DNA of 57,444 nucleotides, counting the filler, from Sluysia triapertura (Eukaryota), in NCBI GenBank assembly GCA_046118255.1. It is 4 parts of 4 records of this genome, joined end to end, with 100 filler letters (N's around TTAATTAATTAA, not from the genome) between each part and the next. Parts side by side here need not be neighbours in the genome. Positions count along the whole stretch, not along the records: positions 1 to 18,903 come from JBJNIA010109757.1; positions 19,004 to 33,224 come from JBJNIA010002782.1; positions 33,325 to 45,041 come from JBJNIA010177140.1; positions 45,142 to 57,444 come from JBJNIA010121638.1. One strand, written 5' to 3'. Of the stretch, positions 12,803 through 57,444 are shown piece after piece. Position numbers and translations under genes: made by a program. Numbering within the stretch: position 1 is the first letter of the stretch; each line of letters opens with the position of its first letter. The notes beneath the pieces were generated by a model. That model had not been told where the DNA came from. It saw only the letters and a program-made list of their open reading frames with translations, and searched no databases.

Positions 12803-13030
12803 TTGTAGTGTCACACTACAACATATATCATATATTTCATTCACTATCACCATCAATTACACCAACTCATCACAAATAAATCACATCAAAATAAAACAAG
12901 TTTAAACATCCGCAGTATCACATCTTATCTCAGATAGATTAAAATACATAATAAAACCTTTTCATCAAAATCATTTTACTAATACCTTTTAACATGTAAC
13001 GCTTATTGCCACTCCATCGACACTATTGCA
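12803..13030 (+). repeat. TTGTRGTG-headed C/A-skewed module (short copy, head is a 21-bp palindrome)
   Basis: gttgtagtgt-c-acactacaac at 12802-12822, followed by G-depleted, C/A-rich sequence and then broken ORFs at 13026-13479. Confidence 0.55.
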
Positions 13031-13479
13031 CTACCTTTTATTGTACTTTTTATTGAAATTTTATAACGAATACGATGACAATCACCGTGATGATTATGAA
13101 GGTTTACTCACGTCAAGTACAATAAACATGAACGATGATCTTAATATGGTTTTTCTAAACAACACAACAAAAACAAAAGTAAAAATTTTCCACAATAAAT
13201 TTAGTCGATCAAATTTAGTTGGCACAATTACGTATAAAGTCATTTAATCATCCTAACGAAAATAATCTCATATCAATGCTGAAAGACTCAAATAATGATG
13301 TAAATATAAAGTTATTTAATCATCTTGGTGAAATTAATCCCATATTATTTCTGAAAGATTCAAGCTCCAGTAATCCGGACGAAGCTACAATGGGTGAAAA
13401 GATCAGAATTCCAAATAGATATAGCACAATTATTATTGATTCAAATACGAAGCAAGATCCGTTAAACATTCTAACCTAG
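13026..13479 (+). pseudogene. Two overlapping ORFs of unknown product downstream of the module
   Basis: ORFs 13026-13247 and 13219-13479 have protein-like composition and overlap as if frameshifted. No family recognised. Confidence 0.25.
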
Positions 13480-16400
13480 CTTTATATGGCGTCAAAAAAG
13501 GCTTATTGATTCTTATGCTTCTTTATGCTACCATTACATTTGTCAGTGAAGACTAAACTAAGAAACTATGTTAAATACCTCTACGTTTTATGATGTATCC
13601 TATTATATAAATTATTGGTCTCTTAATCAAATACATAACATAATACATGTATCTATTTCTAATTCAGCAATAATAATTTTAAGTAAACATTTCATAGTTG
13701 TCATGTTTTTTCACTACTCAATACCAAATAAATGTACCTTAAGCTAGCTTAATATTTTGTCCATACGTAATGTTAAGTTATAAATCATCACTGAATAAAG
13801 ATCAAACTGCAATTTTTATCAATACAATTTCACAAAAGCATACATGTTAAATAATCGTTGCTATGACTAGAGACACAAGTTATATGTTTCAAGCTGTGGA
13901 TTTTAGTCAAACCAATTAAGATTACTCATTCTGATAGACTATTTATTTTAGAAAAACAGCAGCAGAGCCGAAATATTCGGCCATTATGAGTTTTATATTA
14001 TTTATTTCTTCAAATTCTCTGTGTCGCATCGAAATAAACAGACGGTAATCTGACAGATCAGTACTTGGACTAAAACTAGAATGTTGCAGGATTCTCAAAT
14101 TCAATTCTATTAAAACTTGGAATTGTGTAATCTTGAAAATTTACACCTTCTCTATTCATCAGTGCTGGCCCAACTTCTGACATTTTCTGTCATAAGCGAT
14201 AATTTGCAAATAATTTGTATTATATGACTCACTTTCATCCCATCAAGCACACAAAAAAATCTTTTAGTCGGTTAGTTGGTTGACTTTAAATAGTCACTGC
14301 CTTTTGCTCTTATACTTGATAGATGACAAGAATTTGGGAGGATTTTCCAGTAAAATTCAAGTGAAATTGAAGCTTGTGATTTTGCGTTTTCATTAAGCAA
14401 AGTAACATTTTTTACTAAGTATTTTCTGACGTAATTGTTGATAATTGATATCAGACGACACATTTTTACTTATTTTCAATTTCCACTTCGATTTGATTCA
14501 ACGATTGCTGTCAAAATGACATTCCCCAGTTCTGAAGGTCTATCCGTCAACAATTATAAGGCTTACAAAGTATGGATATATTTCGAAATTTTTCATTGGC
14601 TTTAGAACCAACACTGTACTCGAAAATGACATGATGTCATAAATCATCAAAAATTAATAAGTAATAATAAAATAAATTTCTATCTGAAATTATTAAACGA
14701 TTTTGATAATTATAAAGATTATTTAAACTACACTTTGTTAAATTAGAGCTATTCAAAATTCAAACAAAACTTTTCTAACTTCGTTATAGCAATTTAATAC
14801 TAACAATATTGTTAATTTAATTATATAAATATAATTCTAATTCTAATAATTTTGAATTTGTACATAATTCTGTTTTTTTCTATCCCTAACTGACTTATTT
14901 CTGTGATAGAACGATCAATTTAATTTATATTATCTAATTTTCTGCTAAAACGCCTATGCGGCCACATTATATGTGCACACACATTAATATTCATTTATTT
15001 TGCAATTATCTGTCGTTTTGAATTTGTTAGTATTATTTCTTCATTTCAATTTTAATCGTATTTTTAACGAATACAGATCTATATTTCTCATTTTGTTTCA
15101 TTTACATTGATTTTACATGTTTGTAAGATTTTTATTTTGAAATTGTTATGGTGTGTTTAGATTTGTTTTTATTAATAATTTTATTTTAAGATTTTCAAAA
15201 TGGTTTTGATGATCTTAGAACCAACTTATAATTATTAAAATTTGTTCTATTTAATTAAATTCATTGATTTATTAAAGAAAAAATTGTTTTATTGTTACAC
15301 TGTTTAACATTATTGTTACTAAAAAATTTTGCTTTTTCATTTGTTTTTCAAAGTATGCATAATGCAATCATTTATCATTCTTTTACCAAGTTTTGTAAAT
15401 TTTTATCAGTAGAAATCTTGTTGAAACTTTTCTTCCACATCATTCTGAAATTTAAAAATGGATATCAATAAATAAAAATTTCCTATAAATATTTGCCTTT
15501 ATTAAATAATTTGGTTTCTGCATATCATTATGTGTAGGAGATATTCAGGATTTTCTTTGCGTGAGCATTTATTTAGTACAATAATTTTGAATACTACAAG
15601 AATACTAATGATGAATTTTTTACAATCTGCAACTGAAACATCTTGTTGAAAATAAAATCATCGATACAAAACTAAGTAAAGATTTGCATGTCAATTAACA
15701 TAATATATAAACAGTCTGTTTTTCACTATCTGAATTGTAAAATAGTAGTTTAAACAAAAATGATTTGTAATTTTTGGTAATTTTGGAATTCTTACATAAA
15801 CAATAATTGGTAAAAACTTCAAAAACATAAGATTTAGGCCAAATATTAGTTGAAAATTAGTTCCAAAAATAGAAAATTCGATTAAATATTTTTCATTTTT
15901 AAATTAATTCTTTTCGTTATATATTTATAGAATTATTTTAGAAATTAAACATATTATTTTAATTATTTATTAAACAAAATTATGTCAATGCATAAAACTT
16001 AGAAGCTATTGATATACAAGATTAATTATTATTTTACAAAAATAACTTCAAGGTCTAATAGCACAATAATGTAATTTTCATATAAATTCGCGTTAATTAA
16101 AACAAAATGTTAAATGGTGAAATAAATTATATATAAAATTAAAATAAATCTTTTGATAAATGTAGAAAAATATTAAAATTGTATTTAATATATAAACACT
16201 CTACATAAATATAAAATCCGATTTTTATATTATATTATATTTTTATTAATATTATATTTTAATCTTTCTCTAGTGAAAATTGTGACAAGTAAATATTGAC
16301 AAAGAAGAAAAATGATCAAAATGATTAATGTATAATGTAACTAATTATAATTCAAGTTGATATATTTATCAGTTTCTCGTTACATTAAATTAAATGTTCC

Positions 16401-16770: not shown

Positions 16771-17290
16771 TAGAATAAAAACTTAACTTAAGTGAGTTCT
16801 CCAACGTACTGGACTTACCAGCTAGGGTCAGCCTTGGATTTTGTAGATAAGAGCTACGACGTTAACTGAAAAGGAAATCTTCTCTAGTGAATCCTGCTTT
16901 AAAACTTTAATAGTTCTGGAGGTTTTGTAATTATATTTGATATATTGCGATGATCCTGTGAAAAGGATCATTAAAAAATTATTTTACGAAATTGGAATTA
17001 AATTCAATTATAAAAACCTATCTTAATAGTGAAAATTTTATAATTAAAACTATTTGAAAGGAAAAGTCGTAATAGTTGAAGTTTTATTCAATACAAATAT
17101 AATAGTTACAGTCAAAAAGAAATAATAATAGAAATTTTATTTTAGAATTAAAAATAATTCTAATTTTAATATGATTTTAATAACTGAGTTTACGTAGATC
17201 CAATAAAAGAACAAGGAATAATATTGGTTGATTTTTCCTGTATTTTAAGGGGATATCAAAATGATATCAACCTTACATAAATAAACTAAC
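16771..17290 (-). repeat. Dispersed repeat, copy B
   Basis: Reverse-complement match to 7700-8258, core at 16792-16841. Confidence 0.8.
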
Positions 17291-18450: not shown

Positions 18451-18452
<2 letters not shown>

Positions 18453-19003: not shown

Positions 19004-19506
19004 ATATATAATCAGAAAAAAAGATTTTAAAATACAGAAAAAAATATCAAGTATTCGAATGTAGATATTTTATAAGATAATAACCGATTCAAGCACTTCC
19101 AGGAATAATACTACCAGTTTTTTTGGAGTTATTATAAATGAAAACAATCACACCGGATCAATTAAAATTAACAGGAAGGCTACGAACATAATTTGAAAAA
19201 CACAATTATACTTATTGATTTTTTCGGTAAAATTCATACGTTTTGTTAAATTTAGGTACAATCTTTTTACGCTAACTTAAAGTTAGTAATAAACTATATA
19301 TATTCTTTTATTTTATTATTTTGATTGTAATTAGTATGTTTATTTCGTGCAATCGACTGAAAAGTCTTACTTATTATTGATTTTATCAGTAAATTGTAAA
19401 TAAGTTATTATAAAACATTTGTTAGTTATATTAGTTAAAGATAATAGTGAAACTGTCATAGCGGATCCAATGTTTAGAACATTTAGAAATAAGAAATACA
19501 GTATAT

Positions 19507-19735
19507 TCTCAAATTGGCCAAGTTAAAAATTAATTTTATAAAAAATTTGAAATTTTATTTATATTAAAATTTTTGTTTAAATTTTTTTAAAAAACACTAT
19601 ACCTCGTTTTTTCTTTAGGAGTATCTCAGAATTCTCATTATAAGTTTAAAAATTATATTAATTTTAAAATTTTTTTCAATTAGTTCTTTTCAAATTGGCC
19701 AAAAAATAAAAAAACCCAGGTTGGCCAATTTGAGA
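19507..19735. mobile_element. MITE-like element with 15-bp inverted repeats
   Basis: tctcaaattggccaa (19507-19521) and ttggccaatttgaga (19721-19735) are perfect inverted repeats. A third internal tcaaattggccaa lies at 19690. Confidence 0.55.
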
Positions 19736-20324
19736 GAAATAAATGTATAACATATAAATACAACAATAAAATCTTATTTTTCGTCCTAGCTTAAAAATGG
19801 ACTCAAGTATACTATTTAAAATTAAACTATCGGAATCTAGAAAATAATTCCTAAAGAGTTAGTAAAAGTTCAACCAGAATTCACGTAGAAAACTACGTAA
19901 AATTAGCAAAGTTTATAAGATTATCGCCTTTCGAGTGTCGAATTTTACTTTACTCCAAGAAGTACGCACTTTTTTGTAAAGTTATAAGATTACTATGATT
20001 AACTGTTCGACCTCATTTGACTATTTTACATTTAAATCCTTGGACGATCTTTTGGAAGTATAATGTTTATGAATGTTGTCATTATAATTATTATTAAATT
20101 ATTTATTACTTTATTATTATTACTTTATTATTATTTATTATTTATTACTTTAAATTATTTATTACTTCAAACAATTAGAAAAATACAATTTATTCTAAAA
20201 TTTTTATTAAAAATTATAAGTTTAATTGAATCTTTACTAACAAACCAAAATTTATGACTAAATAACAAAAGAAAATGACAAAATGATGACATAAATTTAT
20301 CTGAGATATGATTGAATGTTATAT

Positions 20325-21460
20325 TTAAATTTGTAACAGAAATTGTTGCTTATATCCAATCTCCGGGTCCGTTTGTAGGCATGCTATCGGCAACGTCAGT
20401 TTGCGAATTCTGAAATAAAAATAGTCAACATAAATTAATTTGATAGTAATATGGTTAAAAATTACATTTAATAAAAAATTATCAGAAATAATGTTCGGTC
20501 TAATGTTATTAGGTAGATTCTTTTTAAATTTGGATTCAAATTCGTGAAATAAAAATGTATGACTATGTTCTAGAGTAAATTTTACTTCTTCCACATTCAA
20601 TGTTTCTAATACACCTATAACTGGTTTGTAAAATACAAAAATCGAATTGATTGAATTATCAGTTTCATCTAAATCAGAGTCTTTCAAATTTTGACGTATT
20701 CTTTTATACTGATTATGTAGGAAAAGTAAAACAGTGACAAAAAGCGTTTTAATTTGTTCAAACTTGGGTTTAAACGCCACAGTTTTATATAATTTCAAAT
20801 AAGTTAGCACATTAAAAATTAACAAACAATTTTTTATTTCTACGTTATATATGTCCATATTAAATGACGTAAAATCATCAGCTAATACCAAATCAAGAAC
20901 CGAACGACGTTTTTCTAACAAATTAGACTTTCGAAGAGTTTTACTTAAGCATTCATTAAAATTATTACCTGATTTGATTTATTTCGATCGTTCTAAATTC
21001 TGAAAACAGTTTTGTATTCTTCTATCCACTTTCTGTTTCATTCCACTATGAAATTTGCTGTTATACTCTTAAATAATTTAAATAACCTTTAAATGATATT
21101 GCTTCTTCATCCTTTTCAATTTCAATATTAAATCGACTTAATATTCCCTTATTATTTTTGTGGACAATTCTAGTTTCATAAGAAATACAAATATGACGAA
21201 ATAATCTATCCAAACGTATTGGAAATGGTATTAATTGTTTTGTCAATACATAACTCCTACCAAACTTCAAAATCATTCTGTTCAGGAATCTTCTTAAAGA
21301 ATCTAAACCTAAGAACTAAATTACAATCTAAATTTTCTTCTGGTAAACTTTCATTACTAATTTCATTAACATAAATTAACATATATTGCGGTTGATCTAA
21401 AAAGAATTTACTAATTTTTGACATATTTAATGTTATCGTAGACATCTGGAGTACGAGCAA
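20325..21460 (-). pseudogene. Frameshifted ~1.1-kb coding region of unknown product downstream of the 22620 module
   Basis: Three consecutive minus-strand ORFs (67, 71 and 198 aa) with protein-like composition, starting just after a CCAAT/TGTCA-rich segment. Confidence 0.45.
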
Positions 21461-21599
21461 TTATGATTTAGTTATTTGAATAGAAAATGTTCAACCAATA
21501 TCAGCAATCAAATGTTTGTTCCAATTATTTATTTTTTTAACTCTTTAATTCTTGTCAAAAAAATTTTTCAATTTGTTGTTACTTTTAAAATTTTTTAAA

Positions 21600-22620
21600 A
21601 TCACTATGTACACAGTAAACTGTAATTGTGTAATTCTAATGCTGCATGTTTCCTTTTACTCTAGACATGCAAATGAATAATGAATTTGATTGGGTGACCA
21701 ATCGTTTGATATTTGTAATGCAGAATAAATAAGATATCACAATGTCACTCGTCAACCAATCAAAAGTGAGAGACATAAAATTTAATTGAATTGTAAAGAA
21801 AGCTGGCAACAGTCATAAATTTATGTTAAATTGATTATTTGTGTTAAACTAAATTAGAAACTGTCAATTGATGACGGTTACAGGGGTTAGTAACAATGAC
21901 TAACATTGCTAAAAATTAACAATTTTAATTATGTAAAATCGCGTTATGAATAAAAATGATAATAATAAAAATTAGAAAAATTACGAAAATTACATAAACC
22001 TTTTATTATCTTAAAACATGAACTTGATTCTTTTGTAAATTAATCTCTTTTCTTTACATATTATTTCCTTTGAATAAGATTTGTTGGGCGACTAGAAAGA
22101 TGTGAATTATATAAAGAGCTGATAAGGGAATACCTAAAGGAAATAATGGATAACTAAAATGTTAAAGGAATATTATTTTGATTGCAATGTCCAAAAATAG
22201 TTTTAAAATGTTAGGTTAATATTTTTCGATGATATTAGAGATTGAATGTTAAAAGATTGTAAGCTTGAAATGTTTTGGATTGAATTTAAGATGTGTTTGA
22301 TGATTTAAGGTGTAAATATGGTTTTAATGTTATTAAATAATGTATAAAAATGTTTCTAATGAATTTTTTAATGTACGTTGATAATCTGAAAATGAATGTA
22401 ATTTTAATGATATAAAGTTATGAATTAAAAATGTTTTGAGAAGGTAAGAATAAAGTTTGCAATATTTTGAATTACTTTTGTAGATCTTTGATGATTTTCG
22501 TTAATGAATGAAAATTTGATGTTGTGAAATTTATGTCTAGAATGTTTAGAGTTATTATGAGTTATAAAATGTTGTGAATTATTAGAATAGAATTTCGAAT
22601 TATTGATTTGGCCACCACAA
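21600..22620 (-). mobile_element. TTGTRGTG-headed module, full copy (minus)
   Basis: Reverse complement starts ttgtggtggcca, then about 550 bp of C/A skew, purine block aaagaaaagagatt...aaaaggtttatgtaatttt, and a TGTCA/CCAAT-rich segment at 21690-21900. Confidence 0.65.
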
Positions 22621-23802
22621 AACCCTTAATTATGTGAGACTCAGATCATAATTTAGAACTCTTAAATTATTAAAAAAGCAATTGCAATTTTAGGCTTTAA
22701 AGCCGTGTTTAAATAATATCATTTACACTGATATACACATCACCAAACCTCACCTTGAACTTATTTCGAATATAAAACTAATAAACATCAGCATTTAGAC
22801 CTTCCTTTCTACATAACTCAAAAAATTATTCCTTTTTTGTTACTAAGCTAAAAGATAATAACGTGAAATTAATTATAAATATATTTACATGCATTATATT
22901 TATGTATAATGAACGAAGATGTGAAGTTGATAATCTTACATGATGATACGGATAGTGATACTTGTAGAGAAATTGCATATTTATTGCAAAAATATATTAA
23001 TGAAAAATCAAATAAAATAAATTAATAAAAAAGGAACGTGCTCTTAATGAACAATTTAAACCTTCACGACGGTTCATCCGACGCTCAAATAACTCATGTT
23101 CGTGGAGTGTCAATTGCATTTACTATTAATGATCGATCTCTGTGTGTTTGCTTTAAATTAGTTTGTTAATTTTGTATCAAGAGATAATTATTAAGAATGA
23201 TTTCGAATAAATTAAAAGTATATTACTCAAACTGCAAGATTTTGCTTTCATCCAGACTTTACGAACAAAAGCAATCTGAGCATGTTTTATAAATCAAAAG
23301 AATTTGTTACTATTTAAGCAACGACGAATTTTCTACGGAAAAAGAAAATCTGTAGTCTTCATCGGAGCTTTTAACACGACTTAAATCAACTTGGTGTCGC
23401 GAAGAAATTTATCACGAAAATTCAAATCTATATGTTCGACGAGAGAATGCCATATGAATTTAAAGAGGATGTAAGTAAACTTATCGGACTTTTTCTGCGC
23501 ACCGTGGAAGATATAAATTATATTTATGTTTCGTAACTCCCAGTTCCCTTCCGATTGTACTCGCGGGATGTCCTACAATGTTCATGTTTTATCTTGTGTT
23601 TTGGAACAATAATTTGTTATTTAATGCCTCTACCTTAGATTGTCATTTAATAAATTTTCGTGCGTATTTTGATTTTAAATTTAAATTTGAAAATAGTGCC
23701 AAGTGCCTTAAGTACCTTTTCAATCGATTTTATAATTTGAATAATACGCCATTACAACTAAAATAGCATTCAATTATTACCTTATCAACACCGCATCTCA
23801 TA

Positions 23803-25050
23803 TTGTAGTGGTCAACACTCACAACTTAAAATTCATTAAAACATTTTATTCAACACCCATAATTCAAATTTCATTAAAACATAATATCTAAAGCAATCAC
23901 ACTACATACTATCGAACTACATCGACTCAATCATCATAAACAACACTCGACATTTATAATATCTCATCAACTCATATATACCAACAATTCGACTAACACA
24001 CTCAACCATCCACTTCACAGCATACTCTGATAATTAATCCCGAATAATCCACGACATTCACTCAAAAGCTATCTTATCAAACAAACCACAACCATAATAT
24101 ATAATACAGAAACTATAAATACACAAACACCACTTTAACAACATTAACAAGTACCTCAGACATAGAAAACATTTACGTTAAAATCTTGAATCAACTACAC
24201 CAAACTAAACCCACTTCATTTACACATGTTCATTATCAATACTCATTTTAACGACACTACAAATACGCTAGGATTTATTTCGTAATCGTCTTTAAAATTA
24301 AACAAACTACAACCTTTCAATAAGCATCTCAAACTATCATATTCAAGGAATAAATCTTGTTTTTAATTACAAACCATTATTAAATTTCAGTAATTTATTC
24401 TAACATTCTTCGTTTCAAGTACAACTCAAATCATTTCTTTTATCTTTTTAAATAAATATAATAAAGCTTTAAAGAATTCATTATTTTAATATGAAACAAC
24501 AACGATAACCGAGACGTAGTATACCTCGTTACCGTTGCTCCTTCACAGTATGCCATCTGTTTTTAATTCTCTTTCATTTTATATGTAGGAAATCAAAGAA
24601 TTTAAAAGAAAAGATTGTTATTTCAAGAAAAAGATTTATGTAATTTTAATTTATTTAATAATAATATTAATAACAATATTATTATTAGTACTATTATTAC
24701 TAATCATAAAATAATTTAGTAAAATCAAATTATCTCAGTTGTAGCCATCATCAATAGTGACATTTCATTCATTATTTTTATTTGCATGTCACTATTGATG
24801 GTGGTTCAATACCATAAAGTAATTAATTTCATCCATATTCAATCACAACAAAAAATGGCACATAGTATTATAGGAGTCGTGATTTGATAACCAATTGTAA
24901 GTAAAAACATATTTTTGTTAACAAATCGTAGTAGAGCTTGTAAAATTTTGATGTAATGATTTCATCATAAAAATTTTATACAATGACGATATATTATTAA
25001 AAAATACGGATAAACAGTGAAAAATTAAAATTGTAGAATTTAATTTAAAA
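23803..25050 (+). mobile_element. TTGTRGTG-headed module, full copy (plus)
   Basis: ttgtagtggtca head, C/A-skewed to about 24480, purine block aaaagaaaagattg...aaaagatttatgtaatttt near 24590-24650, AAT tract, 19-bp-arm hairpin at 24745-24804, then ATG at 25051. Confidence 0.65.
24745..24804. promoter_or_regulatory. GTGACA/TGTCAC inverted repeat upstream of cargo ORF
   Basis: ccatcatcaatagtgacat ... atgtcactattgatggtgg (18/19 paired). Homologous to 37135-37201. Confidence 0.5.
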
Positions 25051-26219
25051 ATGCAACAAGAACCATTGCTAGATGATTTTGGATTTAATTTAACTGAACA
25101 CTTTGATCCGTCATCTGCTAACAACTTCCATTCAACTTATTCAAAAATATTAAAAAGACAGAATTCTGTGCAGATTAACGAAAAATTACCACCATATAAG
25201 AGTGAAATGAAAAGATTGGTCAGAAAAGGATTACCGAATACTTATAGACCGGAGACCGTCTCCATGTTTAATCAAATCAGACCACATCTATCCTCATATC
25301 ATGACAATGATGGTTTTATCAGTACTCCCGATGATGGATGTCCAAATCCGATTCCCGGTATCTTCAATAAGATAACTAATTATGAATTGATCTTACCACA
25401 TTCATCAATAATAGCTATTTTTGTAAAATTTGGAGAAAGCCAATTCCTATTAGTCACATCTTCAATTACGTTAAATAACGAACAACAACTTTCTGACACT
25501 GGTTTTCAAGGTAATGTTGTTCAAGTAGAACTTGCTGTTAATACGAAATTTCCAACGCAAGAATCGGCAACACATTACAATATACTTGCTACTAACAACT
25601 TTATGTTAAAAAATTTAAATTATCTTCAAGATAAAGATCGCTACATTATGTTTGCTTTTATGTTTGATATGTTTGCTTTTATCAGTTTGATATTGATAAA
25701 GTTGATTTTGACCTTATTAGTAGATTTTCGTCAAGAAGTTATTCAATTTATTCGGAAACTTCCTTACACTCTCAAGACAATAATGATGACCATGCGGAAT
25801 CAGACTTTAAACCATACTTGTTAGAAGCAGAACGATTATGGCACGATAATACTACAGATACGCTTAGTAATAATGATTCTACTCGTGAAAGAATAGATAA
25901 TTTCAATGAAACTAATGAAATTATAATGGTTTATGTTATTACAGAGTACAAAAATGTCGATTCTAGATATTTGAATGCGAAAACCATCATGGTGGCCCAT
26001 ACTATGTTCCTAACTTCACAGAAGTTCATATTAACCAAACTAGTACTAGTTACAAGAGTAGATAAATCAATAGAAGACTTTGAGATTAATACCTCTTTAG
26101 TAATTCAACAACCAATGTCATATAACACCAACTGTGACCATCTGAACTTCATTAACGATGTTAATTATCTGGTTAGATTAAGTCCATATTGGACTACACT
26201 TTGTCAATACTCTGAATAA
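25051..26219 (+). CDS. GRTP1: Chimeric ORF: GRTP1-like TBC RabGAP N-terminus (aa 1-68) fused in frame to unrelated sequence, continuing after a frameshift
   Basis: LDDFGF..EHFD....NFHSTY.KILKR...MKRLVRKGLP..YR follows the GRTP1 pre-TBC motif (IDPYGF.RPEDFD...KF.SSYL..L.RR...VKRYVRKGVP..HR). Similarity stops before the conserved W and no TBC catalytic motifs follow. Longest ORF in the window (257 aa). Confidence 0.7.
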
Positions 26220-26918
26220 GTATCTTGGTCCCAAGTTTCAATATGTAAAGTTACAGCTGAGGAATTTGAAGTATTTAAGAATAACAATATACTCAATATT
26301 TTATACTCAATATACTCAATTTTATGTATTCATTAATTTTTGATTTAGTTTATAAATGTCTTAGTTGGGTCGGTGAAGTACAACAGGAAATTTCGTGGAA
26401 CGAAGGGGCTGAATATGAAGAAATAAAAATAAGACTTCAAATTTTTATATGATCAAATTAAATTTTAAGTTTATGGTGGTTTATTATTTAATAAATTTTT
26501 GTGTTAATATTTGCAAAATGTTATTTTTTTATGCAATAGATAAATTGACGTGCATATGTTCCGTTGAAATGAATAAATACAAATCTATTAATGAACTTAA
26601 AATCAAATTAATTAAATTCATATGTAGATATATTAAGACCAAAAACTCGTTTAAATTTCATAAAACGAAGAAAGCTAAACATCTTAAAAACGATAAGAAA
26701 ACATTGTTGAATCCTAATCCAGTTCTATATATAAGTCAATTTAATCATAGTAGAAATAAAGTAATTTCCGACGTATTAGGCCTTCTTTTGAAGTTCGATC
26801 GGAATAGTTGCGAAAAGACCTACACCATGTCCTTATCTGAAAGAAAACTTATTAAATTGACATTAAAATTAAGATTAGATGACAATTATAAACGCCCCAA
26901 ACCAACTGTATCCCCAAA

Positions 26919-26981: not shown

Positions 26982-27738
26982 TTTATTTTTATTTGTTGAA
27001 AAAAAGAATTTTCAAGATTTTTCCGGCTAAAGAAAATAATGAAAGATAAGGAAAATGTTTTGTCCAATCACAAGACAAGAATTGAGTGAAAACAAATTGA
27101 AGCAAGACTCAATCAATGCTGACCACCTAATTGTCTCGATGTAATTATTTTAATTATCAGCAACATTCGGCTTGTAGAACTGTAGACAAATTGATCTATG
27201 CTATTGAAAAGGCTTTTTCTGAAATTAATTCGGATATTTCTTTCTCACCAACGGTGATTGGTTGAAACCATGAAAAAAAGAACCTTTTACAAAGATTTGG
27301 TAAGCTTCCAAATGACTCAAATGACTCCTAAAACCGAACCGCAAACTTAAATAAAAATTATATATCAAAAACGACAAATGTAATTTCTTTTATGTCATTT
27401 TATGTTATGATCTTATTGATTGTGTTCTGACGTCACTGCTTGATTTTTGTTCAGCATGCACTTCTGGACTCTCATTCTTAAAAATTTAGTGAAGGATTTT
27501 AGATTTAAACAAACGTATCTTCGTTATTAAGAATTACTATGCAAGGACTAGATAGAAGATGGGAAACAAACTTCAGAACACCTGTACCGAGTAAATTGAC
27601 AATGTTCAATCTTGTATCCAAATTTGAAAGAACCGTTACCTTGATATGCTGATCTTCATTTTCAATAAGATTGAGCACCTGTGCACTACACCAAAGGTAT
27701 TCGATAATTGTTTGATGAAACATTTCTTGGATGTTGGA

Positions 27739-28040
27739 ATCCCCGATTTTACACCGACTGATTTTTTTCTATGGGGAGTTCTAAAGAATGCACTTTATGC
27801 TAAAAGAACCTAGAACAATTGGTCAACTAAAACAAAGTATTCAGCACGAATGGAACGAAATTTCAGAGGAAACTTGCCAGAAAGTATGTCGCAATGTTGT
27901 CAAAAGATGTCGTGCTTTTATTGAAATTCAAGGTGGACATTTTGAACATTTGTAAATACTAAATATACCTATTATATTTTTCGTTTTTGATATATATTTT
28001 TTATTTAACTTTGCGGTTCGGTTACTTCTGGGACACCCTA
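27739..28040 (+). mobile_element. 3' end of a Tc1/mariner-superfamily transposon with right TIR
   Basis: PDFTPTDFFLWGVLKNALY ... CRAFIEIQGGHFEHL* (stop 27953-27955). Terminal gttacttctgggacacccta followed by TA is the reverse complement of a CAGGGTGTCCCA-type TIR. Confidence 0.85.
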
Positions 28041-28598: not shown

Positions 28599-29710
28599 TA
28601 GGACACACCCTATTTTTGCTGTATATACAAACACAATTTATATTATAACAAATTAACAATACTATTTAATAATACTATTTATAGTTTCCAATTTGAGTAC
28701 ATCTTAAATTACTATATTGCATTTAGTTAAATAAATTTCGTTTTAAAAGTATAGGACACATTATACAAACTTTTTATTTAAGAGACTATACAGCGTATTG
28801 TACAAAATTAGTATTTTATTGATGTTCCTGAGTTTTTCAATACATCTACGCACCTTTTTGTCGTCGAATTTATTTATACTTTTTATTTCAATCTTTTCCC
28901 AAGCATCCAATATTGCATTTTTTAACACGGATATATTGTTATACTGTTTTCCTTGACTAAGATAATTGAGATAATAATTGAGACCATACATTTTCTATTG
29001 GATTGAGGTCAGGAGATCTTGCTGGCCACTCTAACACTTTTAATCCCTCTTCACTGAACTTATTAAGTGTAGTTTTAGTCCCGCTGAAAGATGACATTGA
29101 TATTTTCTGGAAGTTTGACATACGGAAATACTACTTCTTTTATCAATTCATAGTACTTATCACCATTAAGAGTTGATTGAACCACACGTAAATTATGTCA
29201 CCCCATACCATAAATTCTCTTAGAAAATATTTCTTTTGAATCCTTTAGATGATGCCAATAGTATTTATAACCATCCAAATTAAATTTCAGTGTGGTTATT
29301 AATATGATTTTCGGCAAAGTTAATTCTTGCTCCTTTATGAGCATCAGTAAATGGAGGTTTAGCAACAAGCATTTTAATGAATTCAACATCACCACTATTT
29401 TTTAAGTGCAATTACATTGATTAATTAGATAACAAAAAGGTGTGTGTAGAGGTATTAAAAAACTCAGAAACATCAATAAAATACCAATTTTGTACAAATA
29501 AAAAGTTTGTATAATGCGTCCTATACTATTGACACGAAATTAACTAAATGCTATAGTGTAATTAAAAGTGTACTAAAACTGGAAACTATAAATAAGTAAT
29601 AGTTTATTCGTGTTTTATTTATTAAATAGTATTGTTAATTGGTTATAATATAAATTGTGTTTGTATATACAGCAAAATTAGGGAGTGTCCTACACTATTG
29701 AAACAGGATG
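28599..29710 (-). mobile_element. Internally deleted Tc1/Tc3-like transposon with ~260-bp IR-DR terminal inverted repeats
   Basis: Minus strand VLEWPARSPDLNPIENVW and KFNLDG-YKYYWH (Tc3-type). 28599-28860 is an inverted copy of 29432-29692. Each TIR has two gtcctaYact direct repeats. Right end followed by TA. Confidence 0.9.
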
Positions 29711-29869
29711 TATATATTTAACCATTTCGATACTGAATGCGCTCTCCATGACCGGACCATTTCACTTACGACATAAATCTTTATCAACGAACTTCACTGA
29801 GCGCCCATGGTACTAAAAGGGTTAAATTATACAAACTGAAAATGAGTAAATGTTCACATAAAACAATAA

Positions 29870-30793: not shown

Positions 30794-31100
30794 TTGTGGT
30801 GACCCAGCCCACACCTCTCCACATATCACATGAACCATTTACGTAAATCTCAACACAAAAAAATACACCGTAAAATATTTTACACTATCATTCACAACAT
30901 TACACTACTTATTATTATAATATCACAAATACCTGGTAAAATTTCTTTTATTAACAATTTTTAATCAAACAATATTAAACCCAGTGTTCATTGCCATTTC
31001 TATTATCATTGTGACACGCTATCTTTTTTCTATTGTCTCCCGATATTTTATTTTTTATCCTTTGTTGCAACTTATCTGCTTGAGCATTCTCAACAACTCA
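30794..31100 (+). repeat. TTGTRGTG-headed C/A-skewed module (short copy) truncating the dynein fragment
   Basis: ttgtggtgaccca head, then C/A-rich tract, gtgaca at 31011. Confidence 0.55.
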
Positions 31101-33224: not shown

Positions 33225-33324
33225 NNNNNNNNNNNNNNNNNNNNNNNNNNNNNNNNNNNNNNNNNNNNTTAATTAATTAANNNNNNNNNNNNNNNNNNNN
33301 NNNNNNNNNNNNNNNNNNNNNNNN
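33225..33324. other. Assembly gap with TTAATTAATTAA linker
   Basis: Same 100-nt structure as 18904. Confidence 0.95.
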
Positions 33325-34975: not shown

Positions 34976-35205
34976 AACTTTTATAAAGTTGGAAGATTCA
35001 ACTTTAATTCATGTTTTAAATTTAATTATCAATAAATTTGAGGAATTTTTTCTTTTAGTTTAATCAATTTAGAAGTCACTTTCATAGCAACTGTTAAGTT
35101 TAAAGCTTTAATTTTTAAATTTCTTAAAAATTTTAGTAAATTAAATAAATTTAATAAGATAACGATGTTGTAATGTTAAATATAATTTTGATTTTATGTT
35201 AAAAT

Positions 35206-36794: not shown

Positions 36795-36799
36795 ATCAT

Positions 36800-40099: not shown

Positions 40100-40638
40100 T
40101 GTGAATCAATAATGTCACCACTGGTAGCGATAATTACCAAATAGTTAATTATAAAGAATAATAATAATGATAACAATAATTATTATTATAAAAATTAAAT
40201 AAAATAAAAATAAAAACATCAATTTCTGCTTATTATCTCTACACGAACTTTCAATTTAAAACTCTTATTCTTTTAACATATTAAAATTTCTTTAAAAAAG
40301 CTTGAAATTTAAATCCCTTATACACATATCGTAAAAGAATATTTAGATATAATTGATCATTTTAAATGAACGTTTTTGAAAGAAAGTGGACTGAAACTTG
40401 AAAATATATTAAATTCGTTTTAAATGTATATTTGATGGATGTTTTTTAAGATGTAAATTTTAGCTCTAATGTTGTGAGATTGAGTTAAATGTCTTAAATG
40501 ATATTTAAATGTGTAATAATTATTTTAAATGCTAATCGATGTGAGTGTGGTTATGAGTGAAATGTTTTTAATGAATCTTTAAAATGTAAATTATGGGTTC
40601 TGAAGGTAAATGTAAGAGTAACAACCTGACCACTACAA
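40100..40638 (-). mobile_element. TTGTRGTG-headed module (minus)
   Basis: Reverse complement starts ttgtagtggtca, then C/A skew, purine block atatgttaaaagaataagag, AAT tract, tgtcac at 40113. Confidence 0.6.
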
Positions 40639-41073: not shown

Positions 41074-41400
41074 TTGTGGTGTCACAGTCACATATGACGA
41101 CCTTTCCCATTTCACAAACAAAACCAGATAAATTAACAAACATTTTAATACGCTAAACATTTTAAAACATTTCGATAGAGCCAATATTGACTTTAAACCT
41201 CATAGTAAACTGTAAGCTCCAAAACAACTTCTTTTACTACCTAACAACTAACAGATCGTCCTACCTCCTCACAAGTTACTAATCCATCATATTCAGCAAA
41301 GCTACAATTCATAAAACTTCGAACCATAAAATTTTATGAAATAATTAATGTAACCATATCAAAATCATAATAACCAATATATTTTCCTTTTGTTTTAATA
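41074..41400 (+). repeat. TTGTRGTG-headed C/A-skewed module (short copy)
   Basis: ttgtggtgtcaca head followed by about 300 bp of G-poor, C/A-rich DNA. Confidence 0.55.
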
Positions 41401-42083: not shown

Positions 42084-42275
42084 TGGAATCGTCGGTTCGC
42101 TTTATTCGAACGATTCGATGAAGGCATTTTACTAGATCGAGAATCATGATTTAGTGTTACTCCAGTATGTACTGCTAAAAGTTATACTACATTTTGCAAC
42201 GAAAATGATGTGGTTTTAGATGAATTTTGTGGTACTGGTGGAAATATAATCCACTTTTTAAATAAAAATATTTGA
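42084..42275 (+). pseudogene. TGS1: Trimethylguanosine synthase (TGS1) fragment
   Basis: *WNRRFALFERFDEGILLDRES*FSVTP...DVVLDEFCGTGGNIIHF matches TGS1 YW.QRY.LFSRFD.GI.LD.E.WFSVTP...DVVVDAFCG.GGN.IQF. Stops fall at the Y and W positions, and it is truncated after the SAM-binding motif. Confidence 0.9.
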
Positions 42276-43099
42276 CATGGTTTGCAAAATAATTCAGGTA
42301 TCAAGAATTTTATTGCGTTGGATTTTTTGCTAATTAATTTTTATGAAGTTTCATTTAAAACATGTTTTTTTAATGGAATCAACCATTTTGTTTTTCATTT
42401 TATGAAATAATTTGTTTTTTAAAGGACTTTAAGTCGTCTTTTAATTTGAATAAAAATTCTTGAAATTTTGTTTAACTTAGCAATACATTTTAAATGTTAA
42501 AAAGGAAATCAGATAGATCGTTTTCATAATGAAACCACGTTAAATTTCAAACTAAAAGTGTAGCCATAATGTGGTAATAAATAAATTCTTAAAAACTTTC
42601 ACTTAACTTTGAGGGTTTATTACAACTTTCACTTATTTCATTTTATTTATCTTAAATCAATAATTCGATAACACACGAAGGTTTATTATAAAAACTTAAA
42701 AATATAAATGCACAATTAGCTTTAAACAAAACTATAATTACTTAAAAGTATAAACGTATAATGAATTAAATATTAAAAGATGTGTAACTTGATTTCAAAC
42801 AACAATTCACCAAAAGTATATGTAATAATCTAATATTACTCCAATATTGATAAGATAAAGCTTAAAAGAATTTAAGATTGTGTTAACACAATCGCTGAAT
42901 TTATAGATATTGAGTGGTTTACTTCTCATCTTTTTTGAGCATGATTGTAGATAGTCCTTGCATAGTAATAGGTAAGATACGTTTGTTTAAATCTAAAGTC
43001 ATTCGCTGCATTTTTAAGAAGCGCACCCTGAACAAAAAATCAAACAATGTTGTCAAAACAAAATCAATAAGCTATTGAAAATGAACTTTATGTGATAAG

Positions 43100-43332
43100 A
43101 TTTACTACGAATATTATGCTTAACTGACCTAGAATTGAAATGTTTTAACTAATAACTTTGTGTGTTAAATAGTTTAGTAAGTTTTGTAGAAAGTAATAGT
43201 GTATTTCCAAGGTGAGTCTGGCGAATTTGTGATGTGTGATAATTCTGTTTGAAATAAAATTCGATATGTCTACAAGAGTTGAAAAGTTGTAAAATCATGA
43301 TCAGTTATGATTCATTGTGTAGTAGACCACAA
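43100..43332 (-). repeat. Possible short/diverged module (minus)
   Basis: G/T-skewed plus strand ending gaccacaa (reverse complement ttgtggtc). Confidence 0.4.
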
Positions 43333-44502: not shown

Positions 44503-45041
44503 CAAGGATCAGCAACCTACGACCTACGAAGAGATTTTGACTAGTTTATGAAGATATTTGACTGGCCCATGACCACATGTTAAATAACGATAATAAATTC
44601 AATAAACAAAATTGTATTAATATTCATTAAAATTCAATATTTAAATTTTAAGTTAACCCATGAATTCAAAGGTCAGAAAAGTAGATAGCGTGTGCGGAAT
44701 TTTTCATGATACTTGGGCGTTTGATTATTTTTTTTATCGAACAAAATGGAAAGCCATCATGTCTTATTTGTCTTGAAAAAGTTTCTATGAATAAAGTAGC
44801 AAATATCAGGCGCCATTACATGACCCACAATTTTGCTAATTTAAAAAAATACTGGACAATTAAAGAGAGATTAATTCAAGGTTTGAAAAGCACATCATTT
44901 TTTACAAATAACAGAAATGAATGTGAAGCTAATACCAGTGCAATCTATGAAGTGTCGAGACTTATTAAGAATACAAACCACAAAATCCAGAAATATTTGT
45001 GAATATGATAACAGATTTTAAGAATGAGTTCTCATCTCATT
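44503..45041 (+). mobile_element. 5' end of a hAT (SPIN/GTF2IRD2-like) transposon, cut by the gap
   Basis: Left TIR caaggatcagcaacctacg preceded by atctagag (nTCTAGAn target consensus). From ATG 44660: MNSKVRKVDSVCGIFHDTWAFDY / FFIEQNGKPSCLICLEKVSMNKVANIRRHYMTH (BED-type finger), frameshift in the poly-T. Confidence 0.88.
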
Positions 45042-45141
45042 NNNNNNNNNNNNNNNNNNNNNNNNNNNNNNNNNNNNNNNNNNNNTTAATTAATTAANNN
45101 NNNNNNNNNNNNNNNNNNNNNNNNNNNNNNNNNNNNNNNNN
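45042..45141. other. Assembly gap with TTAATTAATTAA linker
   Basis: Same 100-nt structure. Confidence 0.95.
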
Positions 45142-45182
45142 GTCTGCGCAGTCCGACTGCTCTACCACTGAGCTATCAGCCC
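45142..45182 (-). tRNA. 5' half of a tRNA or tRNA-derived SINE head (Cys-like), truncated by the gap
   Basis: Reverse complement GGGCTGA-TA-GCTC-AGTGGTA-GAGC-AGTCGGACTGCGCAGAC: canonical D-arm and A box. Anticodon ambiguous. Confidence 0.7.
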
Positions 45183-45913
45183 CGTCTAACAATTTCATTT
45201 TTAATATATTCAATTATATTACTTGGCACCTTTTAGGCCTTTTACCACAACATTACATTTATGCCTGGACAGAGGACTAGAACGTGAAAATTGCAATGTC
45301 GAGGCTGCATTGTATAGCAAGTAAGTAAGTAAACCTAACATCTTAGACCACGGAGTCACAAAATATATTTCATACCACGATGAATCAATTTTGAGTGTTG
45401 AATACTTTCATGCACCAGATTTAAATTCACTGACGTATCATTGTAAAGATTATTAAAAAGAACTAAATTCTGTGACTGTCTTGACATAAAAAGTACTTTA
45501 CTCATATGATTTAAAATGTAAGAATGATTTCTATAATAAAGCACAGTAACTTAAGCCTAACTCGTTATATAAACAATCTAAAATATGAACCATATCTTTA
45601 ACTAAGCTGTGAACCAAATCAATAGTTAGCCCGACATCTTACTGACTATTTAACAACAACGCATGGTTTCGAAATTGAGTTTCACATAATTCGTATAATG
45701 AATTGTAGCATTTTGTGCATTTAGTAACACTATTAATATTAATATTGATTAATTAACAAATTCAAAAAAATTATCTTTTAAAAAACATTCTAAAGTTGTA
45801 TAGTTTTTTATTTTTTTAATTTCTTTTTTAATGCACAAAACTTTAACAATCATTAAAAATTCTTCATTAGTAAAATCATTATCTGCAGAATGTTCTATTT
45901 TACAATTTAATAA

Positions 45914-47561
45914 TTAATAAAACCGTCAATATCAGCATTTCTTAAAACGATTCTTGAAAAAGATGACAAAGATGTAAAAGCTTGCGACTCAGTGAAAATA
46001 CTGTTAGCAAAAGAATAGACGAAATGAGTGAAGATATTGAAAAACAACTTGTTGAAAAGCTGAAAACAAGAAAATTCTCAGTGCAAATGGACTTTGAGAG
46101 ATAATGAGGCAGTATTGATAACTTTCATAAGATATATTGATAAAGGGCATTTTGCAGAAGAAATGTTGTTCTGTAAAAGATTAGAAAACGCCGCTACTTC
46201 CAAAGATATATTTAATAAGCTAAAAAAACTACTTAGATGTCAATGATATACCAATAAAAAAATATAACATCTTGAGCTGCAGATGGTGCTCCTAATATGA
46301 CGGGCAAGAAAAATGGCTGCTTAAAATTGATGAAAGATGCGCATCCAGAAATGATTCTTGTGGATTGTGTTATTCATAGGTAAAACTTGGTAACTAAAAA
46401 CATCTCGCCTGTTCTAAACGAAGAACTACAAACTGTAATAAAATGTGTTAATGTTATTAAAGCTAGTGCCAAATGTGAGCGTCTTTTCAAGCTATTTTGT
46501 GAAGAACGAAATGAAGACCATGTGAGGCTTTTGCTTCATACTGAAGTAAGGTGGCTATCTCAAGGAAACTGCTTGAAAATATTTAGGGAACCGTTTGATG
46601 CTCTTAGTGATTGTTTAAGCGACAAACCAGAAATGAAGCATCTATTAACAATCGATGGCAAAGCCTTTGTGAGTTATTTAGCCGATATCTTTGAAAAACT
46701 AAATATATATTAAATAAGCAACTTCAAGGAACAAATAAAACTCGTGTCGATGAAAAAGCGAAAATAGTCGGTTTCATTACCAATATTGAGTTATGTCAGA
46801 AACATAGTAACAACAAAAACTTTGAACAGTTCCACTGGCTCCAAAAATGTGAAGTAACTGAGACCGCTTTACTTGTTATTGTAAATCATTTGAATAATTT
46901 ATCGGCCAATTTAAAAGAAAGATTTTTAGATTTAAAACAAATTGATTTTCCAACATGGATGATGCAGCCAATGTTAGTGGATTTGTCTGATATATCAAAT
47001 ATGCAGTATCAAGTAGAACTCGCTGAATTACAAAATGATGCTCAGTAAAAACTTTATTTAGTATAAAAGGTGCAATGGCATTGTTTTGTGAGGAAACGGA
47101 AATCAAATACCATAACTTAACCAAACTTAACTATTACTATCGTTTCCATCTTCATTTTTGGCTGAATGTGGATTTACTGATAAAAAAGAAATAGGCTGGA
47201 TATAACACAAACTGGGAATTTGAGACTGAAGCTAACCAAATTGGAACTAAATATAAAATCTCTCTGCAGCAAGCTTCAAGCGCAAGGATCTCACTAAATT
47301 AAAATAACAAGTTAATATAGAAAAATCATTATTAAAATTATTTGGATTTGAATTTTAGTTTTGCATTATATGTTTTGAAATTTTACTTACTGTGTTTTGT
47401 TAACAATGTGATAGTGATTTATTCCTAGAATCCATCATTTATGTTTCTTAAGTGAACAAATCAATTTTTAATGTTAAATATTATGTATGTTACATAGGGA
47501 GGGCATAAAAACTTTAGAAAGGTTAAAGTGGAGCATGGCACAAAAAAGTTGGGAAACACTG
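45914..47561 (+). mobile_element. 5'-truncated hAT-Buster (SCAND3/ZBED8-like) transposon with right TIR
   Basis: RIDEMSEDIEKQL..KFSVQMD, AADGAPNM.GK, CVIHR, LLLHTEVRWLSQGNCL and terminal AQGSH* (stop 47295-47297). TIR gttgggaaacactg at 47548-47561, followed by ctttataa (nnnTAnnn). Multiple stops and frameshifts. Confidence 0.93.
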
Positions 47562-54404: not shown

Positions 54405-56511
54405 TAGTATATAATCTTTTGTAGCAAAATTTTCAATTTAAAATTACGACACCTGATTGAAAGGTTCATTGGAAAAGTATAAATAATTTTAAGTATGATT
54501 TTACGACCTATTAAAAAGGATTTAACTTAATAAATATAATCTAAAGATTAATTAAGTAGAACTGCGTTATGTATCCTCCGTCAAATAAATCACAAAGTGT
54601 TCTCTGTTAAATGAATAGTGAAGTGTTCTCCGACAAATAAATTTGTTCCAAATCCACTATTACTTGAATACTGAGAAGCCAATAAGACGATAAAATTTTT
54701 AAAGAAATTTTGAAAAATGTAATTTGTGTTGAACTTTATATACTTTAAGCAGAAAGAATACAGTTTCCAACTAATATTGACAATGATTTTGTGTAAATCC
54801 TAAAATACTATTGTCTAAATGCTTGGATGAGTCTCGATGATATCGGAGTTTTGATTGTTAATATTTGTAACAGTTATCATGATCACAGTATTGGCAATCG
54901 GAGACAAGTGCAATTCTATTATTCTTGATTACATAATACCGAAAATAAGGTGGATAAATATATGTTAGCACAAATATATTTTCTATTTAGAATTATGAAA
55001 AGATAATGAAATGAATATGAGATAATTGCTATTAAAGAAGATAATGTAGAAGTGAGCTTGAAATTTCTGTAGAGTGGTTTGTTTGAGATTAAGATCCTCA
55101 ATCATTTGAAAATTGGTTGAATTCTAAAAACTAAAGTTAAATTCATTATTTTTATGAATGGTGTTAATATTAACGATTGTTATTTTAAGGTGAGAAGTAA
55201 TTTAAGTAAAAATAGATTGACTAAATCAGAAGAGAATGATGGTTAATCATTAATCAATTTTTGTGCTTTGTACTTAATAAAGTTTGACAGATCGTACTTG
55301 TAATTGTTATTGTCGGTCTAATTCTCAAAGAAAGTTCTGATGATTTGTGTGAGATAATGTTGGATTGTGAAACCCGGGAATGATTGGATGATGAGAATGT
55401 ATATAAGAGAAGAGTTAGTAATTTTAAGTCAGAAAAAAATAATTCAACAATATGGGAATTTTAACTTTTATTTATCATTAATTTAATTTACGTTAATTTA
55501 TTTTTTGGGGCCTATATAATTTTTATTAAAAATTATATTTATTTTTGAGGGATTATAATATTTTTTATTGATATTTTATTATTGTTTGGGAATCATCTAT
55601 TATTTTAAATGATAATATTGGTAAATTTTTAGGGATTCCGCTCGTTATTTTAATTCCAAATTTTGATTATTTTTGTTGTTATAGAAGAGAATTTAGTTTG
55701 AAACAAAAAATTAATAAATAAATATTTCACATTTTTAGTAAGTGATGATTTATTTTTGCCAGTGCGTCACCCTTAGTTTTTCGATTAAATTATTGTATTC
55801 TGAATATTATTAAAAAATTACTGTTAATTTGAGATTTAGTCATTTTTAGTTAATCCATTTGTGTTATTGTTAAAGTGAAAGCTGATAGTAACGATCCGTA
55901 TTTGATTTGTAATTATTAAATTATTGTGTTGTTATTAATTTAAACTGAAAAACGTACATGTTGGTTTTAATAAATACTATTGCTAAAATAACACATTTTG
56001 TAATAATTTATATTTGATTTTATAGTTATTAAATTTATTGAGATTCTCTAAACTAAACTAACTTGTTATTAACTTATTGTCAAGAATATAAATAAAGATG
56101 CAACAATTTTAATGTTTTAAATTCCTAGATTCTCAAAATGTTTTTCTCTTCATCATTCTTACTCTAACAATGTTTTATTATCACGAAAGTATCACTTTTT
56201 TTAAATTTTCAATTTTACATATTCTTCATTCATTTCTTATCCGAATAAGGTCGTCCCAACAAAATCACAAATAACGTAATTAAAGTTGATATCCAAATCT
56301 CGATAGAATTAAATTTTTCAAATCATTTTTTCTTATTCTTTATTACTATTCTCTGCATTCAGATTTTATAGCTAATAAATTTTAATTTTTTTTCGTATAA
56401 GGTCCTCCTCGTAATTATTTTCCTTCTACATGATATTTCATTCTCAGACTAATTTACTTCTATAATATGTTACTTCTGGTGAAACTGATACTAATGCTAG
56501 ACTTCATTAAA

Positions 56512-56540
56512 TGGACCTACCTGGATTCAACCCGGGTCCT
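56512..56540 (-). tRNA. 3' fragment (T-arm and acceptor strand) of a tRNA-Ala-like gene
   Basis: Reverse complement AGGACCCGGGTT-GAATCCAGG-TAGGTCC-A: degenerate B box, with U70 and A73 as in tRNA-Ala. The 5' half is replaced by the module starting at 56540. Confidence 0.5.
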
Positions 56541-57444
56541 TATGATGGCCAACCTAAGATCTTAAAATTTTAACTTAAATGTACACATAAAAACCACTCC
56601 TCACAATATTCAATAATTCATTTCTCTTGAGATCTTTTAAAATTTTCAATACTTCAGATCATTTTAAGTTCACAGTTTCATAACAATAAAACCATAATTT
56701 ACATCCAAAAATTTCAATCATGCATTGCGAAATTGATTCAAAACATTTAAAGTTCATAATTCTTTAACATTCAACCATTAATATCATTAAAAAACAGTAA
56801 ATTCACACTTTTAAACCACTTTTACATTCAATCTTAACATCTCTAGAACTGCGTGTTATTATTCTTTTGCTTATTCTTAGACTTTTAATAGACAATCAGA
56901 CATAATTAGAAGAATTTGATTTTAAGAAGAAAGATTTAATTTTTTATTCAATTGTCACTCATTATTATCATCATTTTTATGTGCGGTATATTAAAATTTT
57001 ATTAAAAACAACTTCAAAAGAACCATTTTAAGAAAATTGTTTTTTTCAGAACAATGTAAAGGTATCAAAAGAAAGATTGTGTTAAAAGAATAAAGAACTT
57101 ATGCATTTATTTTATTTAATTTTAATATTATAATTATTATTCCATTTATTTACTTTATTATAATTATTATTATCGTCATTTTTATTATCATTATTATTAC
57201 CATTATTATTATTCTTTATGATCATTAGTTACTAATGACAGAATTTCATTAAAAACTTCATTACCTGTCACCATTTCACACTATGCAATCATTAACTTTG
57301 AAATTTCTATGGTGACAGGCACACATTTACTAGTACATACATTGCATACAATGCTTGGTGTACATTTTACATTTTGATTTGACATCCAATCATTTCTATT
57401 CTTGATATATTTATTATCTTCTCTCATTGGATATCCAATCAGAA
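56540..57444 (+). mobile_element. TTGTRGTG-type module, full copy (plus), runs off the window
   Basis: Diverged head ttatgatggcca, C/A skew to about 56850, purine block aaaagaaagattgtgttaaaagaataaagaacttatg, ATT tract, cctgtcaccat/atggtgacagg inverted repeat at 57264-57319, CCAAT boxes at about 57386 and 57434. Confidence 0.6.

Follow-up and report, generated by a model that had tools for sequence, protein, structure and literature searches.

Why does one short motif, TTGTRGTG, recur across a stretch of Sluysia triapertura DNA at the head of G-poor, C/A-rich leaders that run into pieces of different host genes? The stretch, here called the window, is 57,444 nucleotides (nt) long and joins four records of assembly GCA_046118255.1; its G+C content is 17-33%, and gaps of N begin at 18904, 33225, 45042 and 54261. 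A first, sequence-only reading had listed nine such heads and interpreted them as the long inverted termini of a two-armed Pack-type element that supplies inward promoters to captured genes. We tentatively favour a one-armed unit, in which an arm, its captured cargo and a shared 3' tail would move together. The window contributes a read-depth boundary at the head, a negative test of inward-facing heads and one candidate for a whole unit, both of its ends included.

All nine heads were located at the positions claimed (plus strand 12803, 23803, 30794, 41074 and 56540; minus strand 22620, 37885, 40638 and 43332). The TGT begins one nucleotide further in, and heads are named below by either position. 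The octamer TTGTRGTG was found 12 times against 2.8 expected, a count that 0 of 100 shuffles reached. Behind eight of the nine heads the next 300 nt had a C-over-G skew of 0.50-0.76, within the top 1.4% of windows of that size, confirming the reported C/A-rich leaders in these cases. The skew is weaker behind 43332 (0.26), which is one of two diverged heads, the other being 56540 (0.59). Dropping the first T gave 17 TGTRGTG sites, and seven of them precede 300 nt with a skew of at least 0.5, against a background of 1.4% (binomial P 2e-9, with the threshold picked after looking). The other ten lack strong skew and include five exact octamers absent from the earlier list (6063, 9320, 11871, 12821 and 24262). 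The octamer thus predicts skew at some sites but not at others, and the motif alone is not diagnostic. Eight of the nine heads start with TGTNR. A T precedes TGT in all nine, which is partly a product of how the motif was first chosen. On the minus strand, 54941-55964 is a kilobase of strong C/A skew without a head motif, and it resembles the 23804 arm only (z 3.8).

Five heads lead into long arms.

23804-24719, plus strand: long arm with the TGTAGTGG end, a C/A-skewed body, a purine block and an AT tract with GT...AG ends (24640-24719)
21909-22619, minus strand: long arm, read depth 2,300-4,800, leave-one-out E 8e-6
37222-37884, minus strand: long arm of the candidate 2,719-bp unit, followed by a hairpin (37200-37136) and a CCAAT box (37088)
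40114-40637, minus strand: long arm with no detectable cargo or CCAAT box, matched by the leave-one-out profile
56541-57444, plus strand: long arm with a diverged head, a hairpin (57264-57319) and three CCAAT boxes, cut by the end of the window

As had been proposed, all five keep one order of parts: skewed body, purine block, AT tract and hairpin zone. A profile built from four of them ranked the fifth as the best non-training match in 5/5 tests (E 2.8e-4, 7.6e-6, 5.7e-7, 0.014 and 7.8e-8). Pairwise z exceeded 3 in 8/10 comparisons, at about 50% likeness in alignment columns. The five long arms are one family. The purine block, put forward as a recognisable shared feature, did not hold up in that role, as by itself it recovered the left-out copy at E<0.05 in just 1/5 tests. 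Behind it, all five arms read ATG followed by T or C and then enter the AT tract, which in four of them is intron-like (78-126 nt, GT or GC...AG). Chance seldom produces them (17 of 1,131 GTA donors). An AAACAT subrepeat reached P<0.05 in only 2/9 arms, and the sequence after the gap, from 33325, aligned with no arm.

The remaining heads (12803, 30794, 41074 and 43332) share the motif and the skew with the long arms, but the arm profile does not recover them. Over 26 comparisons their z was mostly below 2.5, the exceptions being 12804/30795 (z 4.8) and 23804/30795 (z 4.0). The grouping of nine heads into one family therefore stands for the five long arms and not for these four, three of which carry short arms.

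41075-41387, plus strand: short arm with skew and a TGS1 fragment behind it (42084-42272); its link to the long arms is unsupported
30795-31090, plus strand: short arm with skew, and low-complexity and 93-bp repeat frames behind it
12804-13035, plus strand: short arm with skew and a terminal hairpin, and frames without known homologue behind it

The extent of repetition was judged from the contigs of one public run (X1), placed at 80% likeness and covering 20300-26880. This run may be the source of the assembly, which would make it no independent evidence, and summed contig depth is not copy number; the contrast still amounts to three orders of magnitude. Ahead of the 23804 head, depth was 33 in the bin before 23600, and a 671-bp contig of depth 17 covers 23077-23747 with 0 differences, which marks this flank as single-copy. 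Across 23820-24699 it was 31,000-62,000, roughly a thousandfold over the flank. Two listed contig joints enter exactly at 23804, so the repeated DNA starts at the TGT. One contig joins the head after A rather than T. Other copies of the arm carry an AT microsatellite of varying length and, close to the head, small tandem duplications. In agreement with the terminus proposed by the sequence-only reading, a highly repeated element has its sharp end at the head. Depth was 1,905 over 24700-24919 (173 at 24873 and 21 at 24919) and about 570-1,340 across the cargo up to 26880. The cargo behind this arm is thus also multicopy. Around the 22619 arm, depth dropped from the level given above to 292 and 111 beyond the head, and was 650-1,080 over its cargo.

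One known class was set aside on this boundary. The reverse complement of the head, CACTACAA, resembles the end of a CACTA/EnSpm element. Such elements run inward from their CACTA end, but here it is the opposite side of the head that carries the repeated DNA.

Beyond the AT tract the five long arms all contain the reported segment rich in TGTCAC and GTGACA, but a strong GTGACA...TGTCAC hairpin formed in just three of the nine stretches folded (z -7.3, -4.1 and -2.9). The best of these is:

24743-24806, plus strand: hairpin of two inverted GTGACA/TGTCAC sites (z -7.3), with CCAAT behind it at 24891

Between the two best copies, 0/19 pairs change on both sides and four on one, a comparison of two sequences only; the zone may act as an RNA fold or as paired sites in DNA. 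CCAAT boxes follow the hairpin in 4/5 long arms; the motif is common, at 1.9 per kb. A tRNA-derived short interspersed nuclear element was rejected as a source, with no tRNA found and two sub-threshold Rfam matches only, as were ribozyme-bearing Penelope repeats, for which Rfam gave no match.

What lies behind the arms differs between copies, in line with the earlier claim.

36273-36650, minus strand: broken MAPK7 (ERK5)-like kinase fragment whose HRD motif is HKG (homology, E 4e-17)
25021-26427, plus strand: cargo with two long stop-free frames, an intron-like stretch (26271-26348) and AATAAA; no homologue found
20325-21315, minus strand: cargo with frames of 84 and 217 amino acids and an intron-like stretch (20465-20410)

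The kinase fragment (E 4e-17, catalytic aspartate motif missing), the TGS1 fragment at 42084-42272 behind the 41075 arm (E 0.0035) and the 93-bp repeat open reading frame behind the 30795 short arm had all been named before and were found again. No homologue was found for the two cargos behind the 23804 and 22619 arms, and no frame of at least 70 amino acids lies behind the 40638 arm on its own strand. A GRTP1 chimera had also been named, and no homology search run returned such a match; there may be a short resemblance to the start of TBC domains. In nine unit stretches with bounds set by hand (17.9 kb in all), 12 stop-free frames of at least 100 amino acids run on the arm strand and one on the other, against 0.3 in local shuffles. 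Judged from homology and frames, the host gene fragments lie behind the head in the head's own orientation.

The CCCH protein listed among the cargos proved to be part of a 3' tail shared by three places (720, 34670 and, on the minus strand, 35625).

35206-35709, minus strand: shared tail with an Unkempt-like CCCH finger, a 55-nt intron-like stretch, a last exon and AATAAA 140 nt before the proposed end
34670-35160, plus strand: second copy of the CCCH tail, its own head uncertain
720-1215, plus strand: third copy, with CCTACA 140 nt after AATAAA and its head outside the window

In each copy the finger is followed by an identically placed intron-like stretch of 54-55 nt, then by a short last exon and AATAAA. 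The finger match to Pfam zf-CCCH_UNK falls below the cut-off (E 0.002-0.027), and matches to CCCH proteins in the PDB are weak. Leave-one-out recovered 2/3 copies, and the tail profile found no further copies within the window. The head of the 34670 copy is uncertain because of the gap at 33225-33324. In the 22619 and 23804 units a comparable intron-like stretch comes late, with no clear finger; instead of the CCCH tail, the 22619 unit has a last exon (20335-20410, minus strand) reading GPGDWI, presumably similar to how a RanBP2-type finger begins. In 4/5 copies the tail intron can be read through without a break in the frame, so such a stretch may be a retained intron or plain coding sequence. 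The CCCH frame had no match among 5.8 billion proteins and none in viral contigs. Of the exact-pattern scans of metagenomes, one returned 0 matches and another a single chance match, to a phage-like contig (L001) that is unrelated and does not resemble the window; prokaryote genomes gave 0 and viral contigs one chance match (L002). In the cargo ahead of the 34670 finger, 33801-34067 has a weak Ribonuc_2-5A (KEN) match (E 0.013).

Where, then, does such a unit end? Two of eight heads have a closing YNACA end and an exact 5-bp duplication; the ends lie 140 and 129 nt beyond an AATAAA.

35166-37884, minus strand: candidate whole unit of 2,719 bp, TGTGGTGG...TTACAACA, with the 5-bp duplication TCGTT; criteria chosen after looking
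42559-43331, minus strand: short candidate unit of 773 bp, TGTGGTC...GGCTACA, with duplication CTTTT; its link to the long arms is unsupported

The 37884 head is closed by TTACAACA followed by TCGTT, the same five letters that precede the head, 140 nt past the tail AATAAA. In the aligned paralogous tail at 720-1215, CCTACA likewise stands 140 nt after AATAAA. The 43331 head has its GGCTACA end 129 nt past AATAAA, and this unit contains 150 bp in common with 27412-27578. With AATAAA as a condition, which was chosen after the first case had been seen, control T|TGT sites close at 1.6-9.7% (P 0.007-0.18 for 2/8). These patterns suggest an ACA far end with a 5-bp duplication. Of the earlier likeness to Ginger or long terminal repeat (LTR) ends, the TGT[AG]G start fits TGTNR, but the ACA end is suggestive only (2/8 heads). 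Both closed units lie antisense in the 3' end of another unit, some 105-130 nt past that unit's AATAAA. Such nesting would explain why heads look like inward-facing pairs without any two-armed element.

The leading explanation, which we hold tentatively and short of calling it probable, is that each arm, cargo and tail form one non-autonomous mobile unit bounded by TGT...ACA, with a Gypsy-type integrase supplied elsewhere. A TGT, a skewed control-like region, CCAAT, a transcribed part, AATAAA, a short tail and ACA are the layout of an LTR. A TG...CA unit is favoured because of this LTR-like layout and because TGTNR is a Gypsy/Ginger end. The depth boundary at TGT, the TGTNR start of 8/9 heads, the co-oriented frames and the 3' module shared by three units also speak for it. 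Its layout would be that of a solo LTR enclosing a gene. Transcription would probably start from the hairpin/CCAAT zone, a predicted promoter, and mobilisation would probably be carried out by a Gypsy-type integrase in trans. Host sequence would be captured into the middle of the unit by template switching on RNA or by DNA repair, and with so many copies, recombination between them would account for arms and tails whose flanks have ceased to match. A bolder version strikes us as rather doubtful. On this view one TG...CA unit would serve as a translatable mobile cassette for expression, in which the promoter arm and the spliced CCCH tail stay fixed and fragments of host genes are swapped in between them. 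Translation, not the protein, would be needed for its spread, and it would act as a genome-wide exon-shuffling machine.

Several observations count against the TGT...ACA unit. Six of the eight heads lack such an ACA and duplication end. Without the AATAAA condition controls close at 13-32% (P 0.27-0.78), and a second null gave P 0.55. The 140-nt rule fails in the 23804 unit, where a depth of about 1,150 persists as far as 26880, 450 nt beyond AATAAA; and since depth falls to single-copy level at 24919, arm and cargo do not repeat together as a constant block. No arm has a second direct copy in the window, and no primer-binding site or polypurine tract was seen by eye in the flanks. Arm and tail retain intron-like stretches at corresponding places, which argues against an RNA intermediate, since such an intermediate should lose introns. 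The T before TGT in 9/9 heads and the asymmetry of the two duplications fit a Helentron-type TT target better. A domain scan, which covered the 32 longer frames of the window, revealed no reverse transcriptase or integrase partner.

The best-surviving rival is a non-autonomous Helentron (HINE/DINE-1-like), an explanation that we consider unlikely while giving it real weight. Rolling-circle copying from a fixed head that overran its stop signal would carry downstream DNA along, introns included, and would give one sharp end, variable far ends and mosaics. Only one sharp end is seen, T precedes TGT throughout, introns are kept, the arm is far commoner than the cargo, and variable AT microsatellites and tandem duplications lie near the head. 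A terminal hairpin is present in 4/9 heads (P 0.007-0.06 against shuffles) but missing from the other five, and one contig joint has A, not T. Among 27 inverted-head candidates, inspected by eye, none had a convincing 3' subterminal repeat with a G+C-rich stem-loop. The two 5-bp duplications and the TGTNR start also argue against it, and no Rep/helicase match was found among the 32 frames.

Distinctly unlikely is an expanded host family of CCCH-finger genes, segmentally duplicated with its promoter and an independent upstream repeat; host fragments would have entered individual copies later, and only the arm would be mobile. Arm depth is about 50x that of cargo and falls before or at the hairpin (173 at 24873, 21 at 24919), the tail ends as an ordinary gene would, with an intron-like stretch, a last exon and AATAAA, and the 40638 arm has no cargo, all in keeping with such a family. 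Against this, the five arms are only about 50% alike yet keep the same order up to the hairpin zone. The repeated DNA ends at the head instead of continuing into the flank, and copies lie scattered over either strand among old exons of host genes.

The two-armed Pack-type DNA transposon of the sequence-only reading (Pack-MULE, foldback or Ginger-like), with long inverted termini and inward promoters, now appears improbable. Heads do form inward-facing pairs (12804/22619, 30795/37884, 23804/40637 and 41075/43331), those at 23803 and 40638 share a perfect 12-nt inverted end, and two CCCH tails meet tail to tail near 35160. However, 0/5 inward pairings carry a target duplication of at least 4 bp, and beyond the head the partners are poorly alike (z 1.3, 0.5, 3.4 and 1.2). 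Ginger inverted repeats, for comparison, span 40-297 bp in the excerpted text of PMC2836005. Last and very improbable as a whole is the reading that a short motif and base composition have brought together several TG-starting repeats that are not related. It is true in part, as the four short heads are unlinked to the long family, but three tails are homologous and leave-one-out success refutes it for the five long arms.

Set beside known systems, the units share features with several. The TGTNR start and candidate YNACA end resemble Gypsy LTRs, Ginger1 and Ginger2, for which the excerpts of PMC2836005 give TGTNR ends. The same excerpts give Ginger elements inverted repeats of 40-297 bp, 4-bp duplications (5-bp in Tdd), a CCGG or RTATAY preference and a transposase. 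Here no transposase or Ginger-type duplication was seen, candidate far ends match the head at just 4-5 of 6 nt, the best inverted match between heads is 12 nt, and 8/9 heads lack a CCGG/CCGT or RTATAY flank, 23804 being preceded by ATAT. LTR machinery builds multi-gene chimeras in animals, which, as excerpted in PMC5131818, likewise hold partial sequences of one or several host genes inside an element and are recopied non-autonomously. Their cargo lies between two LTR-element halves, whereas here no second LTR, primer-binding site or polypurine tract was seen, the CCCH tail is fixed and intron-like stretches are kept.

Helentrons, HINEs and DINE-1, in the parts of PMC4067079 consulted, share the boundary T, the very high number of copies, the microsatellite, a terminal hairpin in some cases and the capture of gene fragments. 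The units differ from them in having no clear 3' subterminal repeat or stem-loop, two candidate duplications, a promoter-like zone and a fixed tail. Captured host fragments (MAPK7-like, TGS1) are a likeness to Pack-MULEs and Pack-TIRs (TIR, terminal inverted repeat). Animal Pack-TIRs, including Ssk-FB4, also multiply host sequence with a long transposon end; excerpts of PMC8277862 report four multicopy cases among 370 in 100 genomes and a median cargo of 224 bp. They are paired inverted repeats with duplications, whereas here one arm carries kilobase cargo in many copies. Cassandra, Helenus and Ajax are LTRs with host-derived sequence as well, but theirs, according to PMC10886601, are small-RNA genes and not a spliced protein-coding cassette. 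The planarian Burro elements, compared by description only, are Gypsy elements with thousands of copies and extra domains in an internal polyprotein, not a spliced protein-coding cassette in one TG...CA unit (PMC6431247, in excerpt).

LTR elements, Helitrons and TIR elements are all known already to capture genes (excerpts of PMC5131818, PMC4067079 and PMC8277862). A literature search found no description of an arm-cargo-CCCH cassette; Repbase, Dfam, supplements and most subscription papers lay outside that search, and a repeat library in a supplement could already name the family. The mobile gene-capturing family is likely a real variant of non-autonomous gene-capturing elements. It matters as multicopy capture is described as rare in animals in the excerpted PMC8277862. 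A family placing many host fragments between a promoter-like arm and an exon for an RNA-binding finger would be a large source of chimeric genes. It would equally be a source of false gene models and a testable case of capture mechanism. A solo-LTR-like unit with a spliced gene inside, if true, would not fit the usual layouts of LTR elements or DNA transposons.

Apart from the units, the window contains relics of DNA transposons, short stretches that look like introns, and pieces of animal genes (laminin EGF, fn3, MAPK7). At 29790-30540 on the minus strand, two exons are separated by a 244-nt intron; we take them to resemble dynein heavy chain, for which homology searches gave no match, and they suggest that the units lie among old host exons. 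A decayed laminin-EGF fragment (37987-38450) stands between the 37884 and 40637 arms, and at 4293-5066 an fn3-like frame is followed by a hydrophobic stretch and interrupted by a stop.

Among the transposon relics, 28599-29692 is of Tc1/mariner type; its inverted ends measure 74 bp, it also has longer inverted arms that are degenerate, and it contains a DDE_3 match. A second relic (27332-28023) has 53-bp inverted ends, and its part 27412-27578 recurs inside the 43331 unit; its last frame, which has no Pfam match, is presumably the tail of a mariner transposase. A broken transposase at 44685-47300 has a Spin-doc zinc-finger match, and we assume it to be hAT-like. A small element at 19497-19746, resembling a miniature inverted-repeat transposable element, has inverted ends containing CAAATTGGCC. 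Finally, 8188-8238 and 16792-16842 have a short repeat in common, in opposite orientation.

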